Positions 1,451 through 6,794 of a DNA stretch of 64,000 nucleotides are shown here, piece after piece. Each line of letters begins with the position of its first letter. Position 1 is the first letter of the stretch. Under the pieces are notes generated by a model. It saw nothing but the letters and a program-made list of their open reading frames with translations, was not told the origin of the DNA and searched no databases. This stretch comes from a virus: positions 64,814-128,813 of IMG/VR virus record IMGVR_UViG_3300037452_000118; one strand, 5' to 3'. A program made the position numbers and the translations under genes.

Positions 1451-1758
1451 ATGAGCATCGTCGGCAAGTTCTTCTGCTTCTGCGGCGAGGAATACCTGCA
1501 CACCGGGGAGATAGTCGAGCAGCTCGACGCCGCCACGGTGCTGGTGCGGTTCACAAGTGCAAGCACGTTCCGGTCGCCAGCACGGTCGCGCTGGCGACGT
1601 CTTCGATGATCTCGAAGATGGATAAGGATGGCGACTTGAACGCCACGTGGGAGTTCTTCGACACCCGCGCCGACCTCGACGCCTGGATGACGTGGCTCGG
1701 CATGCCGGACGACGACCGCCACAAGGACGCCGGCGAAGAAGTGCCGAAGCTGAACTGA
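1451..1758 (+). pseudogene. Small phage gene with a 1-nt frameshift near 1553
   Basis: AGGAGG SD; MSIVGKFFCFCGEEY...VRF continues in another frame as KCKHVPVAST...WEFFDTRADLDAW...KLN*; span 308 nt. Confidence 0.5.
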
Positions 1759-1760
1759 CC

Positions 1761-2558
1761 ATGCGCCGGCGCAAGGGCGAGAAGGTGCTGCGGCCGGTGT
1801 TCGCCAACGCCGGCATCGCGGCGCTCTACCGCAAAAAACTTCGCGCGCTGATCGAGGAGATGCAGGCGTCGTACGCCCACTTCCTCAAGGCGCAGTACCG
1901 CCGAACGCCCCCGATCATGGCGCAGGACGACTCGCCGGCGAAGGAGCTGGAGCGCGAGCTGCGACGGCTCGGCGTCCAATGGCGGAAGAATTTCGACGCC
2001 GCAGCCCCGGCGCTGGCGGCATGGTTCGCGAAAGCGGCCTGGAAGCGCTCCGACGCCGCGCTACGGAAGATTCTGAAAGACGCCGGAATTTCCGTGGAAT
2101 TTCAGATGACCCGCGCGATGCGCGACATCCTCAACGCGACCGTCGCACAAAATGTCTCCCTGATAAAATCCATCGGCAGCGAGTACCATACCGAGGTCGA
2201 GGGGCTTGTGATGCGTTCAGTAACAGCCGGCCGCGACCTCGGATTCCTGGCTAAAGAACTCCAGCACCGCTTTGGCGTTACGCAGCGCCGAGCGGCGTTT
2301 ATCAGCCTTGACCAGAACAACAAGGCGACCTCTGCGCTGATGGCCGCGCGGCAGACGAGCCTCGGCATCGAAGAGGGGACATGGCTTCACTCTGGGGCCC
2401 GCAAACACCCTCGACCCAGCCATGTACGCAACAACGGGAAACGATTTAGTATCCGTGATGGCTGGCCCGATCCAGCGCTGAAAGGCAAGCGGATATGGCC
2501 CGGAACGGAGCCAAACTGCCGCTGTACCTGGAAACCCGTCGTCTTCGGATTTAGCTAA
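1761..2558 (+). CDS. Phage Mu gpF-like head morphogenesis protein (MuF)
   Basis: RRAAFISLDQNNK, WLHSG..HPRPSH, PGTEPNCRC motifs. Confidence 0.9.
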   Translation: MRRRKGEKVLRPVFANAGIAALYRKKLRALIEEMQASYAHFLKAQYRRTPPIMAQDDSPAKELERELRRLGVQWRKNFDAAAPALAAWFAKAAWKRSDAALRKILKDAGISVEFQMTRAMRDILNATVAQNVSLIKSIGSEYHTEVEGLVMRSVTAGRDLGFLAKELQHRFGVTQRRAAFISLDQNNKATSALMAARQTSLGIEEGTWLHSGARKHPRPSHVRNNGKRFSIRDGWPDPALKGKRIWPGTEPNCRCTWKPVVFGFS

Positions 2559-2626
2559 GTAGGGAAATAGGGGGGGGTTGTTTTTCGAGTTTGGGCATGG
2601 CATATCCCCCAGACAACGAGGAAATC

Positions 2627-2758
2627 ATGCTTTCGATACGCTCATATATCGCGCCAACAGCCGCCGCCCGACCGAGCAATCGGTTCAGGACGTGGGCGTT
2701 GTCGCGCGTGTGTGATTTCCAGACGAAGCCCGAACAAGGGCTAGAGACCAAGGACTAA
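2627..2758 (+). CDS. Putative 43-aa leader peptide upstream of the tRNA array
   Basis: GAGGA SD, ATG 2627, TAA 2756-2758 (MLSIRSYIAPTAAARPSNRFRTWALSRVCDFQTKPEQGLETKD). Confidence 0.35.
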   Translation: MLSIRSYIAPTAAARPSNRFRTWALSRVCDFQTKPEQGLETKD

Positions 2759-2974
2759 ACGGCAGGGGCCAATCTCCCTCTGCCGAGACAGGCAGAGAGG
2801 ATCGAGACGGCCCGCAAAGTCCAAGTTAGAAACACCTCCCAAGCGAGCCGATACCTTCCGAACTGCCTGACGACCTCGCAAGAGCGTCGTGATGTTGCTC
2901 ATCGTGAACGTCCAGAATTTTGGACGGGTGTTGTGCGACCGCCTCCTAACGGATGCTCAGCGGAACGCCCGTCC
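2688..2974 (+). ncRNA. Candidate multi-stem structured RNA or leader of the tRNA array
   Basis: Closing helix GGACGTGGGCGTT/AACGCCCGTCC, nested GTCGCGC/GTGCGAC and AACACC/GGTGTT, four hairpins including a GCAA tetraloop. Confidence 0.6.
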
Positions 2975-2987
2975 GTTTGTCAATTTT

Positions 2988-3062
2988 GCTGGCATAGCTC
3001 AGATGTAGAGCAGCTCCCCTGTAAGGAGACGCGCGGAGACTCAAGCCCTCCTGTCAGCACCA
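2988..3062 (+). tRNA. tRNA-Thr(UGU)
   Basis: Cloverleaf, anticodon loop cc-TGT-aa, encoded CCA, atypical T-loop. Confidence 0.8.
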
Positions 3063-3065
3063 TTC

Positions 3066-3140
3066 GGCCCCTGAAGCATTGTGACGATGCAGCCGCCCCG
3101 TAAGCGGCAGAGCCGTGTTTGATTCACGGCTGGGGCTCCA
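3066..3140 (+). tRNA. tRNA-Thr(CGU)
   Basis: gccgc-cc-CGT-aa-gcggc, CCA. Confidence 0.8.
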
Positions 3141-3141
3141 T

Positions 3142-3217
3142 GCTCTCTTAGCTCATTTGGTAGAGCACCGAGTTGGTATCTCGGAGGCGGGTGGATCGAA
3201 GCCACCAGGGAGCACCA
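3142..3217 (+). tRNA. tRNA-Thr(GGU)
   Basis: ccgag-tt-GGT-at-ctcgg, CCA. Confidence 0.9.
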
Positions 3218-3222
3218 TTTTC

Positions 3223-3299
3223 GGCCTCGTAGTCCAACTGGCAGAGACGACGCCCTCAGAAGGCGTGCGTTGGGAGTTCGAATCTCCCCGAGGCTACCA
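3223..3299 (+). tRNA. tRNA-Leu(CAG), short variable region
   Basis: acgcc-ct-CAG-aa-ggcgt, TTCGAAT, CCA. Confidence 0.9.
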
Positions 3300-3303
3300 A
3301 TTC

Positions 3304-3380
3304 GCTCGCGTATGCAAATCGGTAAAGCAGCGAAGCTCAAACCTTCGTGTTTGGAGATTCGAGTTCTCCCGCGAGCACCA
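3304..3380 (+). tRNA. tRNA-Leu(CAA), short variable region
   Basis: cgaag-ct-CAA-ac-cttcg, CCA. Confidence 0.85.
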
Positions 3381-3381
3381 T

Positions 3382-3458
3382 GCCGCAGTAGCCCAATTGG
3401 CAGAGGCATCCGGCTTAAACCCGGTTCAGTGCGGGATCGTGGCCCGCTTGCGGCACCA
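3382..3458 (+). tRNA. tRNA-Leu(UAA), short variable region
   Basis: ccgg-ct-TAA-ac-ccgg, CCA. Confidence 0.85.
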
Positions 3459-3464
3459 TTTCAC

Positions 3465-3536
3465 GGGCGCTTAGCTCAGAGGAAGAGCGTCGCGTTTACA
3501 CCGCGAAGGTCGAGATATCATAATTCTCAGCGCCTA
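3465..3536 (+). tRNA. tRNA-Val(UAC)
   Basis: tcgcg-tt-TAC-ac-cgcga; no full CCA. Confidence 0.8.
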
Positions 3537-3537
3537 C

Positions 3538-3612
3538 GGGCTGTTAGTTCAGCGGCAGAATGCTTGCTCGACACGCAAGAGGTCCGGTGTTCGATTCACC
3601 GACAGCCCACCA
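3538..3612 (+). tRNA. tRNA-Val(GAC)
   Basis: cttgc-tc-GAC-ac-gcaag, CCA. Confidence 0.9.
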
Positions 3613-3616
3613 TCAT

Positions 3617-3690
3617 GGTCCTGTATCTCAGTGGCAGAGAACGCGGCCGATAACCGTGAGACGCGGGTTCGATTCCCGACGGGACTACCA
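3617..3690 (+). tRNA. tRNA-Ile(GAU)
   Basis: cgcgg-cc-GAT-aa-ccgtg, CCA. Confidence 0.9.
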
Positions 3691-3737
3691 ACGAAAGGAA
3701 CTAGGAAAATGCTCTATCCGCTCAAACGCGGGTCTGC

Positions 3738-3812
3738 GGACCCGTGGTGTAATAGGTAGCACACGAGACTTTTAATCTTGGAGCCAGAGTTCAAATCTCT
3801 GCGGGTCTACCA
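3738..3812 (+). tRNA. tRNA-Lys(UUU)
   Basis: cgaga-ct-TTT-aa-tcttg, CCA. Confidence 0.9.
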
Positions 3813-3818
3813 AATAAC

Positions 3819-3894
3819 GGACGACTAGCTCAATTGGCAGAGCATCCGCCTCTTAAGCGGCAGGTTCGGGGATCGTGGCCCCGGTCGTCCTCCA
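3819..3894 (+). tRNA. tRNA-Lys(CUU)
   Basis: ccgc-ct-CTT-aa-gcgg, CCA. Confidence 0.85.
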
Positions 3895-3895
3895 T

Positions 3896-3971
3896 GTGCC
3901 AGTACCCCAACGGTAGAGGGATCGCCCTGAGAAGGCGTTCAGTGGGCGTTCGAATCGCCCTTGGCACACCA
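3896..3971 (+). tRNA. tRNA-Leu(GAG), short variable region
   Basis: cgcc-ct-GAG-aa-ggcg, TTCGAAT, CCA. Confidence 0.85.
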
Positions 3972-3972
3972 T

Positions 3973-4046
3973 GCGGCTATAGCTCAAAGGCAGAGCGTTC
4001 GGTTGTCAACCGAGGGACCGGGGATCAATACCCCGTAGCCGCGCCA
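3973..4046 (+). tRNA. tRNA-Asp(GUC)
   Basis: ttcgg-tt-GTC-aa-ccgag, G73 CCA. Confidence 0.85.
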
Positions 4047-4052
4047 ATTCAA

Positions 4053-4129
4053 CAGGGTGTAGCTCAGTCTGGTAGAGCACTTGCTTCGGAAGCAAGGGGC
4101 CGCAGGATCGAAGCCTGCCACCCTGACCA
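4053..4129 (+). tRNA. tRNA-Pro(CGG)
   Basis: cttgc-tt-CGG-aa-gcaag, C1-G72, CCA. Confidence 0.9.
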
Positions 4130-4133
4130 ATTC

Positions 4134-4208
4134 GGCCGTCTAGCTTAACGGCAGAGCCCGCGCCTCATAAGCGCAGTGATGCGAGTTCGACTCTCGCGGC
4201 GGCTACCA
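4134..4208 (+). tRNA. tRNA with CAU anticodon (Met or Ile2)
   Basis: gcgc-ct-CAT-aa-gcgc, CCA. Confidence 0.85.
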
Positions 4209-4218
4209 GGAGGCGGCC

Positions 4219-4545
4219 ATGCGCTGCATCGTCAAATACGAGCATCCGAAAAGATTGCTCCGCGTCTACGTGCACGGCGCGCCTCATCGGCGCGTCCATC
4301 GCGAAGTGCTCAAACGCTACCGCGAGGAATTGTGGAAGGCGGCGCAGGCTGCGGGCATCACGGCGGCGATGACCCATCAAATAACTTTGTCGGCGACGTT
4401 CATCGACCCGACGGGACCGGACTTGGACAACCTCATCACGGCGCTGTTTCAGGCGCTGGACGGCAAATGCGGGAAAGGTCCGACGATCTTGAAAGACGAC
4501 AAACAGATCGTCTACATCGAAAAAACTGGGATCATCTTCCCTTAG
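4219..4545 (+). CDS. RusA-like nuclease inside the tRNA array
   Basis: AGGAGG SD; PDLDNLITALFQALDG...ILKDDKQIVYI resembles the RusA DxDN...DD motif. Confidence 0.7.
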   Translation: MRCIVKYEHPKRLLRVYVHGAPHRRVHREVLKRYREELWKAAQAAGITAAMTHQITLSATFIDPTGPDLDNLITALFQALDGKCGKGPTILKDDKQIVYIEKTGIIFP

Positions 4546-4612
4546 CTCATTTGGACAGAGCACCCGGTTCCGAACCGGGAGGTACGGTGTTCGAATCACC
4601 GAGGGAAGGCCA
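4536..4612 (+). tRNA. tRNA-Arg(CCG)
   Basis: cccgg-tt-CCG-aa-ccggg, CCA; overlaps the stop of the upstream ORF. Confidence 0.9.
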
Positions 4613-4616
4613 ACAT

Positions 4617-4701
4617 GGATGGTTTGCCGGCGGCCCGGCGGCGAGTTTTGAAAACTCGTAGCACCGAAAGGTGTGGCGATCGACACGTCAACCATCCGCC
4701 A
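4617..4701 (+). tRNA. tRNA-Ser(UGA)
   Basis: Loop tt-TGA-aa, long variable arm cacc-gaaa-ggtg, G73 CCA. Confidence 0.75.
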
Positions 4702-4705
4702 ATAC

Positions 4706-4791
4706 GGAAGGCTAACCGAACAGGGTTCGGCGTCGCCTGGAAAGCGCACGGCTCGGCAACGAGTGGAGATCGTGTCTTCAGCCTTCCGCCA
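4706..4791 (+). tRNA. tRNA-Ser(GGA)
   Basis: Loop ct-GGA-aa, long variable arm, GCCA. Confidence 0.75.
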
Positions 4792-4795
4792 TTAC

Positions 4796-4885
4796 GGAAA
4801 GTCAACGCGGCGAGTGCCGCGCGCCCGTTCGAAGCGGGATGGAACGCGCATAGCGTTTGGGGATCAAGACCTCGGCTTTCCGCCA
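4796..4885 (+). tRNA. tRNA-Ser(CGA)
   Basis: cccg-tt-CGA-ag-cggg, long variable arm, GCCA. Confidence 0.75.
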
Positions 4886-4889
4886 TTGA

Positions 4890-4963
4890 CGCGCGATGGA
4901 GGAGGAGTTCCTTGCTAGGCTCATAACCTGGAGACGTCGGTGCAAGTCCGGCTCGCGCAACCA
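4890..4963 (+). tRNA. Initiator-type tRNA-fMet(CAU)
   Basis: C1:A72 mismatch, ct-CAT-aa loop, ACCA. Confidence 0.8.
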
Positions 4964-4968
4964 ACTAA

Positions 4969-5055
4969 GGGCAAGTATGCAAGAGGCCAAAGCAGCGGCG
5001 CTGTAAACGCCGTCCCGAAAGGGTTCGCAGGTTCGAATCCGTGCCTTGCCCACCA
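4969..5055 (+). tRNA. tRNA-Tyr(GUA)
   Basis: cggcg-ct-GTA-aa-cgccg, variable arm ccc-gaaa-ggg, CCA. Confidence 0.9.
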
Positions 5056-5056
5056 T

Positions 5057-5130
5057 GCGGACAAAGGATTACGGCAGTCTCCCTCGTTGCCAACGAGGTG
5101 GCGGGAGTTCGACTCTCCCTGTCCGTACCA
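5057..5130 (+). tRNA. tRNA-Gly(GCC)
   Basis: cctcg-tt-GCC-aa-cgagg, CCA. Confidence 0.85.
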
Positions 5131-5132
5131 AC

Positions 5133-5208
5133 GCCCACTAAGCTAATCTGGTGAAAGCGTCTGCCTGAAGAGCAGAAGAGCGTGGCTCGAAACCACGAGT
5201 GGGCACCA
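5133..5208 (+). tRNA. tRNA-Phe(GAA)
   Basis: tctgc-ct-GAA-ga-gcaga, CCA. Confidence 0.9.
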
Positions 5209-5212
5209 ATCT

Positions 5213-5284
5213 GGGCCGGGCGTCGGGACGCAGTGATGCCTTGCAAGCAACGCGTTGGGAGTTCAACTCTCCCTCGGTCCACCA
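5213..5284 (+). tRNA. tRNA-Ala(UGC)
   Basis: Loop ct-TGC-aa, G3:U70 pair, reduced D-arm, CCA. Confidence 0.75.
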
Positions 5285-5291
5285 ATTTTAT

Positions 5292-5365
5292 TCCCCTCTC
5301 GTTCAACGGTAGGACACCTGACTGTTAATCAGAGAATTGTGGTTCGATTCCACGGAGGGGAGCCA
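5292..5365 (+). tRNA. tRNA-Asn(GUU)
   Basis: ctga-ct-GTT-aa-tcag, GCCA. Confidence 0.92.
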
Positions 5366-5368
5366 ATT

Positions 5369-5443
5369 GCCGCCATCGTCTAGTGGCTAGGATATTTGGT
5401 TCTCAACCAAATGAAGCGGGGTCGGAACCCGCTGGCGGCTCCA
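5369..5443 (+). tRNA. tRNA-Glu(CUC)
   Basis: tttgg-tt-CTC-aa-ccaaa, CCA. Confidence 0.85.
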
Positions 5444-5449
5444 TTTTAC

Positions 5450-5526
5450 GGTGGGCGTAGCTCAATCGGTAGAGCACCAGATTGTGAATCTGGTGGCCAC
5501 GGGTTCGATCCCCGTCGCTCACCCCA
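5450..5526 (+). tRNA. tRNA-His(GUG)
   Basis: G-1, ccaga-tt-GTG-aa-tctgg, C73 CCA. Confidence 0.92.
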
Positions 5527-5527
5527 A

Positions 5528-5604
5528 GGTCCCATAGCTCAACTGGACAGAGTGCCAGATTACGAATCTGGGAGATCGGGGTTCGAATCCTCGTGGGATC
5601 GCCA
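5528..5604 (+). tRNA. tRNA-Arg(ACG)
   Basis: ccaga-tt-ACG-aa-tctgg, CCA. Confidence 0.92.
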
Positions 5605-5609
5605 TTTAA

Positions 5610-5686
5610 CAGGGAGTGGGAAAGTCTGGTAATCCGCTTGCCTTGGAAGCAAGAGATCGCGGGATCGAAGCCCGCCTCCCTGACCA
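5610..5686 (+). tRNA. tRNA-Pro(UGG)
   Basis: cttgc-ct-TGG-aa-gcaag, CCA. Confidence 0.88.
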
Positions 5687-5689
5687 ATT

Positions 5690-5763
5690 GCCCCTTTCGC
5701 TCAATGGTAGGGCGCTGCGCTCTGAACGCAGATACGGTGGTTCGATTCCATCAAGGGGTGCCA
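5690..5763 (+). tRNA. tRNA-Gln(CUG)
   Basis: ctgcg-ct-CTG-aa-cgcag, GCCA. Confidence 0.9.
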
Positions 5764-5767
5764 TGAT

Positions 5768-5842
5768 GTTGCAGTGCCGAGAGTGGCTATCGGCCGGTCT
5801 GCAAAACCGAGAACGCGAGTTCGATCCTCGCCTGCAACTCCA
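5768..5842 (+). tRNA. tRNA-Cys(GCA)
   Basis: cggt-ct-GCA-aa-accg, U73 CCA. Confidence 0.88.
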
Positions 5843-5846
5843 TCTT

Positions 5847-5922
5847 GCGCTCGTAGCTCAGTGGACAGAGCGGCCGGTTTCTACCCGGTTGGTCCGGGGT
5901 TCGAATCCTCGCGAGCGCGCCA
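5847..5922 (+). tRNA. tRNA-Arg(UCU)
   Basis: gccgg-tt-TCT-ac-ccggt, CCA. Confidence 0.92.
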
Positions 5923-5923
5923 C

Positions 5924-6000
5924 GGTCACGTAGCTCAATTGGACAGAGCCGCAGTTTCCTAAACTGCCGTGTGGGGGTTCGAGTCCTCCCGTGATCGCCA
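5924..6000 (+). tRNA. tRNA-Arg(CCU)
   Basis: gcagt-tt-CCT-aa-actgc, CCA. Confidence 0.92.
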
Positions 6001-6005
6001 TTTTT

Positions 6006-6089
6006 GGAGAGTTAATTCGGCAGGGACCGAACGCGGTTTGCTAAACCGTTGGTGCCGCAAGGCATGGGAATCGTGCTCTCAACTCTCCG
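6006..6089 (+). tRNA. tRNA-Ser(GCU)
   Basis: gcggt-tt-GCT-aa-accgt, variable arm tgcc-gcaa-ggca; no full CCA. Confidence 0.78.
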
Positions 6090-6090
6090 C

Positions 6091-6164
6091 GCGGGTATGG
6101 TATATAGGCTGTGCCCAAGGCTTCCAACCTTGTGAACGGAGTTCGAGTCTCCGTGCCCGCACCA
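6091..6164 (+). tRNA. tRNA-Gly(UCC)
   Basis: caagg-ct-TCC-aa-ccttg, CCA. Confidence 0.88.
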
Positions 6165-6170
6165 AATAAC

Positions 6171-6245
6171 GGCCCCTTAGTTTACTGGCTAGAATCTCCG
6201 GCCTTCACCCGGAAGGAAGCGGATCGAAACCGCTAGGGGCTGCCA
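6171..6245 (+). tRNA. tRNA-Glu(UUC)
   Basis: tccgg-cc-TTC-ac-ccgga, GCCA. Confidence 0.85.
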
Positions 6246-6249
6246 AAAT

Positions 6250-6323
6250 AGCCGGTTCGTTCAACGGTAGGACGTGGGACTTTGAATCCCACTATGAGGG
6301 TTCGATTCCTTCACCGGCTGCCA
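6250..6323 (+). tRNA. tRNA-Gln(UUG)
   Basis: tggga-ct-TTG-aa-tccca, GCCA. Confidence 0.92.
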
Positions 6324-6324
6324 T

Positions 6325-6398
6325 GGCGGCAGAGCGCTGGGTCTCAGCGGTTCCTCATAAGGACCGTGTGCGCGGATCGTCACCGCGGGCCGCTACCA
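6325..6398 (+). tRNA. Third CAU-anticodon tRNA (Met or Ile2), atypical arms
   Basis: ggttc-ct-CAT-aa-ggacc, CCA. Confidence 0.7.
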
Positions 6399-6401
6399 AA
6401 T

Positions 6402-6476
6402 ACGGGTGTAAGATAACGGTAGTCGGCAGGTCTCCAAAACCTTGCAGTCCGGGTTCAAATCCTGGCACCCGTGCCA
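6402..6476 (+). tRNA. tRNA-Trp(CCA)
   Basis: aggt-ct-CCA-aa-acct, GTTCAAAT, GCCA. Confidence 0.88.
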
Positions 6477-6563
6477 TTCCTTTCTGGACGTTTACTGCCT
6501 GCTTCATTTCTGGCGATAGGCTGGTGACGGGAATCGCGGGGCGTGCTAAACGCCTTCCCGGCC

Positions 6564-6794
6564 ATGCAGATCATCCCCAGCGGCTGCGCGTCCCCCGGCG
6601 TCGTCCTCTCGATCGCCGCGCTGGCGCCGTACTCGTTCTGGACGCGCAACGAGATGATAGGGTCGAGCAACGAGGAGATGCTGGCGGTCATGCTCAACCA
6701 GGTGCCCGCGGCGCGGATCGCCGAGATCAACGCCGCGCACGCCGCCGCGCTGAACCGGCTCGCCGGGATGCCGGTCGAGGGGAGGCCGTCGTGA
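6564..6794 (+). CDS. Hypothetical protein
   Basis: High-GC3 ORF, overlaps next gene by GTGA. Confidence 0.5.
   Translation: MQIIPSGCASPGVVLSIAALAPYSFWTRNEMIGSSNEEMLAVMLNQVPAARIAEINAAHAAALNRLAGMPVEGRPS

Follow-up and report, generated by a model that had tools for sequence, protein, structure and literature searches.

Phage transfer RNA (tRNA) arrays are increasingly viewed as serving codon adaptation and survival of host defences that cleave tRNAs, and to our knowledge the control of their expression is essentially unknown. The tRNA region of phage T4 encodes small stable RNAs that are co-transcribed and processed with its tRNA cluster. We analysed a 64,000-nucleotide (nt) stretch of viral DNA, hereafter the window. 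It comes from a complete IMG/VR virus record of 128.8 kb that has direct terminal repeats (IMGVR_UViG_3300037452_000118, positions 64,814 to 128,813), of which it constitutes the second half. A structured RNA element that we call the leader (2610-2987, + strand) lies in the window after a Mu-F-like head gene and ahead of a co-oriented tRNA array. Two kinds of described system lend themselves to comparison with it. GOLLD (RF01998) and ROOL are structured RNAs of unknown function beside tRNA genes in phages and prophages (PMC5737381, PMC6582537), and a GOLLD RNA lies inside a cluster of 32 tRNAs that was acquired by horizontal transfer and has an HNH endonuclease (PMC6582537). The other kind is the amino-acid operon attenuators of the trp, thr, his and pheA type, in which a short open reading frame (ORF) led by a Shine-Dalgarno (SD) sequence precedes the operon, its stop codon adjoins the first of several overlapping alternative helices, and the last hairpin, GC-rich and with U residues after it, stands just before the first structural gene.

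The leader has in common with GOLLD and ROOL a location near phage tRNA genes (22 loci and the window). However, it is much smaller (about 230 nt of non-coding RNA, or 370 nt with its ORF), has a conserved ORF that looks translated, and always stands at the 5' head of the array, flush with a tRNA-Thr. The likeness to these two RNAs drawn in an initial annotation, made from the sequence alone, thus holds for genomic context only: neither family gave an Rfam match, at gathering thresholds (window and the related loci L015, L016 and L019) or at E-values up to 10 (three leader copies), and the global nested architecture proposed there is unsupported. With the attenuators the leader shares all three features named above, and its architecture appears to match that of a leader-peptide attenuator except for the run of regulatory codons. 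It differs from them in that the genes downstream are phage tRNAs, in that it has no conserved regulatory codon run, in that about 230 nt and at least six helices separate its stop codon from the final hairpin, and in that this hairpin is three-tiered with conserved loops and only predicted to act as a terminator. Structured RNAs recur beside phage tRNA genes, GOLLD and ROOL being examples, and the leader is a compact further case; this pattern suggests that such RNAs and phage tRNA clusters are functionally linked. The tRNA block is probably expressed under the control of the leader or together with it, and as a covarying RNA with a frame-preserved mini-ORF the leader offers a testable handle on array regulation, either as a cis-regulatory switch or as a companion RNA.

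The element is the 5' leader of a mobile cassette of uncultured soil phages that consists of the leader, about 31-33 tRNAs and a RusA-like gene, and it is firmly established that the leader travels with this tRNA-array cassette. A metagenome scan with an alignment of the RusA-like protein gave 42 loci, in which the leader was then sought by nhmmer and a covariance model, and it was counted as adjacent when its end lay no more than 120 nt from the first array tRNA. By this rule, it is present in 22 of 44 RusA-anchored loci, and the first tRNA called by ARAGORN is a tRNA-Thr in all 22 (cgt in 20, tgt in L056 and L050). Homologues stand at the head of RusA-marked tRNA arrays on 23 other contigs with unrelated upstream genes, in about 11 lineages by our own grouping, namely, the window, L015, L054, L056, L061, L019, L027, L016, L030/L033, L031 and the L037 group, which comprises 12 near-identical contigs. 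Of the loci in which 400 nt or more precede the array start, three are clearly leader-less (L045, L048 and L064), L058 has no leader match and is ambiguous, and L019 holds a diverged copy outside the 120-nt rule; all other negative RusA-anchored loci are cut by contig ends. L015 and L016, recovered via the RusA-like ORF, have syntenic 31-tRNA arrays. The former aligns to window positions 2618-5444 at 75% identity with different genes upstream, and the leader of the latter is more diverged and has an internal deletion; the genes 5' of the leader differ among the window, L015, L016 and L019. Exact-motif scans of viral contigs, the only searches based on the leader itself, added no new copy: one returned only L015 and L016, and another returned 14 stretches, of which two were known copies and 12 were chance matches rejected by covariance model R1.

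The closest syntenic relative of the window, L002, has a MuF protein 71% identical to that of the window, followed by a small hydrophobic ORF and then a homologue of window positions 6543-6794, with neither leader nor tRNAs. Since leader and array are absent together, window positions ~2559-6505 constitute an insertion relative to L002. Further syntenic relatives found via MuF (L002-L008) and via the Nudix-DUF2213 protein (L009-L014) likewise contain no leader homologue and, except for two tRNAs in L011, no tRNA array at the corresponding site. When compared by blastn with 50,697 phage records, positions 2540-3000 gave no match and the array gave single-tRNA matches only, and a scan of genome contigs returned one array, that of L064, without a leader.

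It is also firmly established that the leader represents a new conserved structured RNA family that is absent from Rfam. Rfam 15 at gathering thresholds reported only tRNAs on the window, L015, L016 and L019, and with E-values up to 10 nothing consistent was found on window positions 2400-3100, L037 positions 1180-1545 or L016 positions 3530-3910; no T-box, riboswitch or other cis-regulatory family matched at that cutoff, apart from single matches at chance level that were not the same in the different homologues. A full-text literature search, with supplements outside its scope, found no published description of such a leader or of leader-peptide attenuation of a phage tRNA operon. The initial annotation's proposal of an unassigned class of non-coding RNA therefore stands, as the window and two homologues have no Rfam match and compensatory changes accompany the conservation of the element across about 11 lineages.

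The leader is transcribed: of 24 sequencing runs listed, two are soil metatranscriptomes from different studies (X4 and X6), and both contain it. Within the region compared (2200-3700), X4 has a 288-nt contig identical to 2626-2913 and X6 a 188-nt contig identical to 2728-2915, and neither covers 2200-2625 on the side of the MuF gene; the probable source DNA run spans the whole region. Such contigs cannot prove ends, strand or level, and the lack of cover over the 3' hairpin and most tRNAs does not mean that these are absent. The small-share runs among those listed (X5-X24) give no information on habitat. By manual reading, a promoter-like motif TTGACA-N17-TATGTC lies just upstream of the leader in L016, L030 and L033.

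The + strand of 2627-2987 folds at -145.5 kcal/mol (z = -4.70, with 0/100 shuffles as good), compared with z = -1.77 for the - strand. The part after the ORF is more stable than dinucleotide shuffles in nine of nine lineages (z from -3.1 to -6.6), and the ORF part gives a weaker signal in the nine (z from -1.0 to -3.8), so that the comparison with shuffles named beforehand as a check came out in favour of a structured RNA. The strongest evidence for a particular structure comes from the three-tier hairpin at the 3' end (3' domain, helices P1 to P3; Table 1). In 17 distinct sequences realigned with model R1 (alignment A8), 91.7% of its cells are paired and 11 of 22 pairs show compensatory changes, with a covariation of 0.378 versus 0.153 in shuffles (0/500) and 0.045-0.123 in slid controls; the outer helix P1 alone has compensatory changes at nine of its 11 pairs. 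The domain folds at -29 to -37.5 kcal/mol in 11 sequences, with conserved, asymmetric internal loops GUGCGA and UGCUCA and apical loops UUCG, GAAA or similar. Model R1 at E-values up to 1 finds only 2885-2988 in the window, with no second copy of the domain, at 562-746 or anywhere else. By manual reading, L056 is the only lineage without a U-rich tail after P1.

Between the ORF and the 3' domain lie helices A:B and C:D, a GNRA-loop hairpin, and the segments W and X (Table 1). A:B forms at -9.8 to -15.4 kcal/mol in 13 of 13 sequences, with -15.4 kcal/mol in the window; one of its pairs changes from A-U to G-C in L016 in alignment A10 (eight lineages), and a manual reading shows the same compensation in the L037 group and L027. 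In C:D, 98.2% of cells are paired and two of seven pairs are compensatory, and the domain that it encloses is shortened in the L016 group and absent in the L037 group. The hairpin that follows has one compensatory pair and a GNRA loop in the window, L015, L016, L030 and L033, a GAUGUAC-type loop in L054, L056 and L019, and the loop GAUGUUAAG in L061, and is missing from the L037 group. The fold made up of A:B, C:D and this hairpin has a covariation of 0.134 versus 0.068 in shuffles (0/500), with four compensatory pairs. The segment W, whose sequence GAUGUU is invariant, and X can form either the helix W:X or a small local hairpin GAUG/CAUC; W:X has an overall range of -3.5 to -10.2 kcal/mol and is in the minimum free energy (MFE) fold of most lineages (the window, L015, L054, L016, L033 and the L037 group).

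Table 1. Positions of the leader's components and of neighbouring features in the window
Feature	Position	Strand	Remarks
Mu-F-like head gene	1647-2558		Upstream of the leader; Pfam Phage_Mu_F, E = 3.4e-12
SD-like sequence GAGGA	2618-2622	+	4 nt before the ATG
Leader ORF	2627-2758	+	43 codons and TAA; the TAA ends 1 nt before 2760
H1, long irregular hairpin	2642-2715	+	Inside the ORF; apical hairpin 2670-2685, loop with AAUC; in the MFE fold
H2, hairpin AGCCC-GAACAA-GGGCU	2727-2742	+	-8.5 kcal/mol
Helix A:B	2760-2768 with 2776-2785	+	Begins 1 nt after the stop codon
Helix C:D	CAGGCAG 2789-2795 with CUGCCUG 2863-2869	+	Encloses a variable hairpin domain, 2802-2858
GNRA-loop (GCAA) hairpin	2870-2890	+	-9.4 kcal/mol
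W and X	W, GAUGUU 2891-2896; X, AACGUCCAG 2907-2915	+	Region 2891-2915 has the highest sequence conservation (alignments A5, A6, A8)
X:X' hairpin (CGUCCAG/UUGGACG)	2909-2926	+	Mutually exclusive with the base of P1
3' domain, three-tier hairpin	2922-2974	+	P1 2922-2932/2964-2974; P2 2939-2942/2960-2963; P3 2944-2946/2951-2953
U-rich spacer GUUUGUCAAUUUU	2975-2987	+	Between P1 and the first tRNA
First array tRNA	2988-3059	+	Rfam tRNA, 44.4 bits; not called by ARAGORN
RusA-like ORF	4219-4545	+	108 amino acids; inside the array, between tRNA-Met and tRNA-Arg(ccg)
Nudix-DUF2213 protein gene			Downstream of the tRNA array

All pairings listed in the initial annotation are complementary in the window, and the four hairpins named there form, H2 and the GCAA hairpin with the energies in Table 1 and those at 2775-2801 and 2909-2926 at -17.0 and -7.9 kcal/mol. 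The "large nested stem" closed by long-range helices did not withstand analysis. The predicted energies of its helices are -16.0 (2688-2700/2964-2974), -10.2 (2701-2707/2933-2939) and -6.1 kcal/mol (2831-2836/2927-2932), and the MFE fold instead pairs 2964-2974 locally with 2922-2932. The helix between the ORF region and 2964-2974 does better than mononucleotide shuffles in three of nine lineages (the window, L054 and L016) and is at chance level in the other six, and 2831-2836 lies within the variable domain that several lineages have deleted. Covariation among homologues, which had been named as a check, was found for the local 3' hairpin, A:B and C:D; the long-range closing stems are not conserved. 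The 3' half of the ORF hairpin (2688-2707) resembles the linker, P1 5' strand and loop at 2922-2939, in L037 as well as in the window, and in both the ORF hairpin and the 3' domain share a stretch GAAUUGG...GUGCG. The leader may thus have undergone an internal duplication, and the likeness accounts for the long-range complementarity initially noticed.

The 43-codon leader ORF, its SD sequence and the 14-nt distance from 2974 to the first tRNA are as initially described. An SD-led ORF of 36-45 codons ending at the homologous TAA, 1-3 nt before helix A, occurs in all nine full-length lineages, with purine runs (GGAG/GAGG/GGAA-type) 5-10 nt 5' of the start codon in most lineages. Three internal anchors are always at 0 mod 3 from the start although their distances vary between lineages (45-69 nt for the AAU loop, 66-78 nt for TGCGTG and 87-111 nt for CCCnnnnAAGG), and by our count at least nine indels have occurred in the ORF, all of them multiples of three. 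That the mini-ORF is preserved in frame is firmly established, and we read this pattern as selection on the frame, i.e. on translation, and much less on the peptide. As for the RNA in this region, a long hairpin comparable to H1 occurs in nine of nine lineages folded, with seven different sequences in the apical stem according to a manual reading of the folds, made with no formal covariation count; MAFFT/RNAalifold gave only A:B here, on a poor alignment. The CCCnnnnAAGG motif of H2 is found in seven of nine lineages, being absent in L016 and L061. Two further ideas about this region were rejected: in the sensing of Thr codons, the Thr residues are scattered with mixed codons and no conserved pattern, and in the pairing of a CCUCC-containing loop with the SD sequence, the polarity does not fit in L015 (by eye).

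The SD sequence, the start codon, the frame conservation and the peptide motifs AARPSN, W, CV and PEQG would also be expected of an ordinary small protein gene with a structured 3' untranslated region, the conservation of the RNA then being secondary. We consider this very improbable. The ORF lacks the typical codon-position GC signal, its GC content at third codon positions being 0.54-0.68 versus 0.72-0.95 in neighbouring genes, so that its composition is not gene-like; close relatives within the L037 group differ by three synonymous versus seven non-synonymous changes; the product has no Pfam or PHROG match and one related product (P0001) among 5.8 billion proteins. Moreover, conservation and covariation are at their strongest 3' of the ORF, and the AAUC loop, although kept at the level of the RNA, stands in a different frame in the L037 group.

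The position of the stop codon bears on the alternative pairings that begin beside it. As initially noticed, 2776-2785 can pair upstream with 2760-2768 (-16.4 kcal/mol) or downstream with 2791-2801 (-16.9 kcal/mol). The latter alternative, B:C (B with segment C at 2791-2800), is available in 13 of 13 sequences at -9.4 to -17.8 kcal/mol, and A:B and B:C are near iso-energetic in all 13. Further along, the CCUG of D can extend the GNRA hairpin via the G-run before W, and X:X' forms at -6.0 to -9.5 kcal/mol in all 12 sequences that possess X', so that neighbouring helices overlap without a break from the stop codon to P1. When the stop codon and the following 13 nt (16 nt) are forced to be single-stranded, A:B gives way to B:C in nine of nine folds.

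We lean, without regarding it as the probable outcome, towards the reading that the leader is a cis-acting element through which the tRNA array is expressed in step with translation. A ribosome terminating at the stop codon, 1-3 nt before helix A, would occlude A, upon which B would shift from A to C. The change would then be relayed along the overlapping helices, from C:D to the pairing of D with the G-run before W, on to W:X and to X:X', and would end in a choice between X:X' and the base of P1, where P1 and the U-rich tail behind it, immediately ahead of the first tRNA, would serve as a terminator or as a processing hairpin. The full form of this proposal, a phage ribosome-sensing attenuator that governs the whole array of about 33 tRNAs via a 40-codon leader ORF and a six-helix relay, is doubtful. 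If true, it could supply tRNAs when those of the host are scarce or destroyed by defence nucleases, and this would be the first tRNA operon under the control of a leader peptide.

Several observations weigh against a translation-linked switch at the head of the array. No codon run is conserved among the nine leader peptides. In B:C, none of the pairs is compensatory, although 94.6% of its cells pair, and two lineages have changed B and A but not C; the fold made up of B:C and the extended hairpin has a covariation of 0.092 versus 0.070 in shuffles (48/500). The covariation of X:X' amounts to one event, a joint change of X, X' and X'' in the L016 group (GUCUCC / GGGGAC / GUCCCC). P1 persists in the MFE folds with or without masking of the stop region; thus, any coupling to P1 would have to be kinetic, and thermodynamic masking cannot reveal a kinetic switch. 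The conserved internal loops of P1-P3 are needless for a plain terminator, the U tract is short or interrupted and missing in L056, and although 2959-2977 with its tail is listed as terminator-like, the regional count of such hairpins is 4 versus 4.4 in shuffles. Both RNA contigs end near 2914, at the end of helix W:X and about 70 nt before the U tract (~2985), a shared stop that is a weak hint and agrees better with processing than with termination. In L035, a 7-nt deletion (5615-5625) removes the leader ATG, and L040 (591-639) is without the entire X'-to-X'' hairpin; these variants are either assembly errors or a sign that the parts concerned are dispensable. Finally, all members of the family except the window were found via a gene inside the arrays, so that the link with arrays is partly a matter of ascertainment. 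The in-frame ORF, its stop codon 1-3 nt before A and the formability of the alternatives in all lineages are compatible with the translation-sensing switch that the initial annotation had suggested, but covariation supports only A:B and P1, masking spares P1, and a run of regulatory codons is lacking.

Because regulatory codons are absent, the alternative helices do not covary, the final hairpin is elaborate and the contigs end upstream of it, it is nearly as likely that the leader is a processed stable RNA with a job of its own, acting in trans or with a dual function as a decoy, a sponge or the mRNA of a micro-peptide. Such an RNA, a distinct possibility, would be made as part of the array transcript and released from it by two cuts, one by an endonuclease in the AU-rich linker beyond X and the other by RNase P at the tRNA; the alternative pairings would be incidental. 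The common end of the two contigs at W:X in independent studies and the lack of cover over MuF are consistent with it, as are the conserved internal loops of the 3' domain and the fact that the MFE state (A:B, C:D, W:X and P1) is the state supported by covariation. Large structured RNAs beside phage tRNA genes, GOLLD among them (PMC6582537), provide precedents. However, the contigs cannot show true ends or abundance, the RNA has no known partner or target, and a purely non-coding RNA leaves the frame conservation of the ORF and the fixed stop codon beside A unexplained.

The element heads a long untranslated operon and directly adjoins its first tRNA, a position that would also suit a processive anti-termination or processing/folding element. 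With a role like that of phage put RNA or the leaders of rRNA operons, it would either let RNA polymerase cross the hairpin-rich, untranslated 3.5 kb of the array or prepare the first cuts by RNase P/RNase E. The elaborate hairpin with its conserved internal loops agrees with such a role, and the leader-less L045, L048 and L064 indicate that the element is optional and not part of the tRNA genes. Nevertheless, we regard this explanation as improbable: no cis-regulatory or anti-termination family of Rfam matches, the likeness to put and boxA is one of role, with no motif matched, and the conserved ORF is left unexplained.

The array of the window comprises 31 tRNAs according to ARAGORN, and Rfam adds those at 2988-3059 and 3465-3536, the union of both lists being 33. 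A manual reading of the Rfam alignment gives the first of these the anticodon loop CCUGUAA, Thr(UGU)-like with C instead of U at position 33; the arrays of relatives begin with Thr(CGU). Neither program finds a tRNA in the gaps 4612-4890 and 4209-4218. The ORF within the array is weakly RusA-like (PHROG 140, E = 5e-4; Pfam RusA, 15.6 bits versus a cut-off of 22.8) and is kept in all related arrays at 47-84% identity. Its place recalls the endonuclease genes inside the T4 and mycobacterial tRNA clusters, of which the T4 cluster has the gene segB (PMC2330249).

Some of the related loci have features of their own. L019 (2588-5280) carries its diverged leader core (5006-5142) downstream of a Ro60 gene (TROVE and vWA) and a PNKP-type phosphatase gene. 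A sequence near 5204-5279 that resembles a tRNA-Thr(UGU), recognized by eye and called by neither ARAGORN nor Rfam, follows the core, and the 3' domain is unlike that of the rest of the family. The idea that the leader is a Y RNA, a partner of Ro60, was rejected, since TROVE and the Ro60 vWA occur upstream in L019 only and the complete 128.8-kb genome has no TROVE match while control genomes responded; the Rfam Y-RNA model had no match on L019. In L002, further on from the genes described above, lies an ORF that we take to be TnpB-like from its N-terminal sequence. L056 has an additional near-perfect long hairpin (CUCUCUACUUCUUCUC... with its complement; 2833-2884) between the 3' domain and the first tRNA. 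The leader-less array of L064, on a contig of a gammaproteobacterial metagenome-assembled genome and with a RusA-like gene, is preceded (region 5450-5975) by three tandem hairpin-rich units of about 100 nt, each like ...CCGGGTGGTGA...CTTCG...GAAGGCC...CCGGAAGCC, which may be a different structured element heading a tRNA array.

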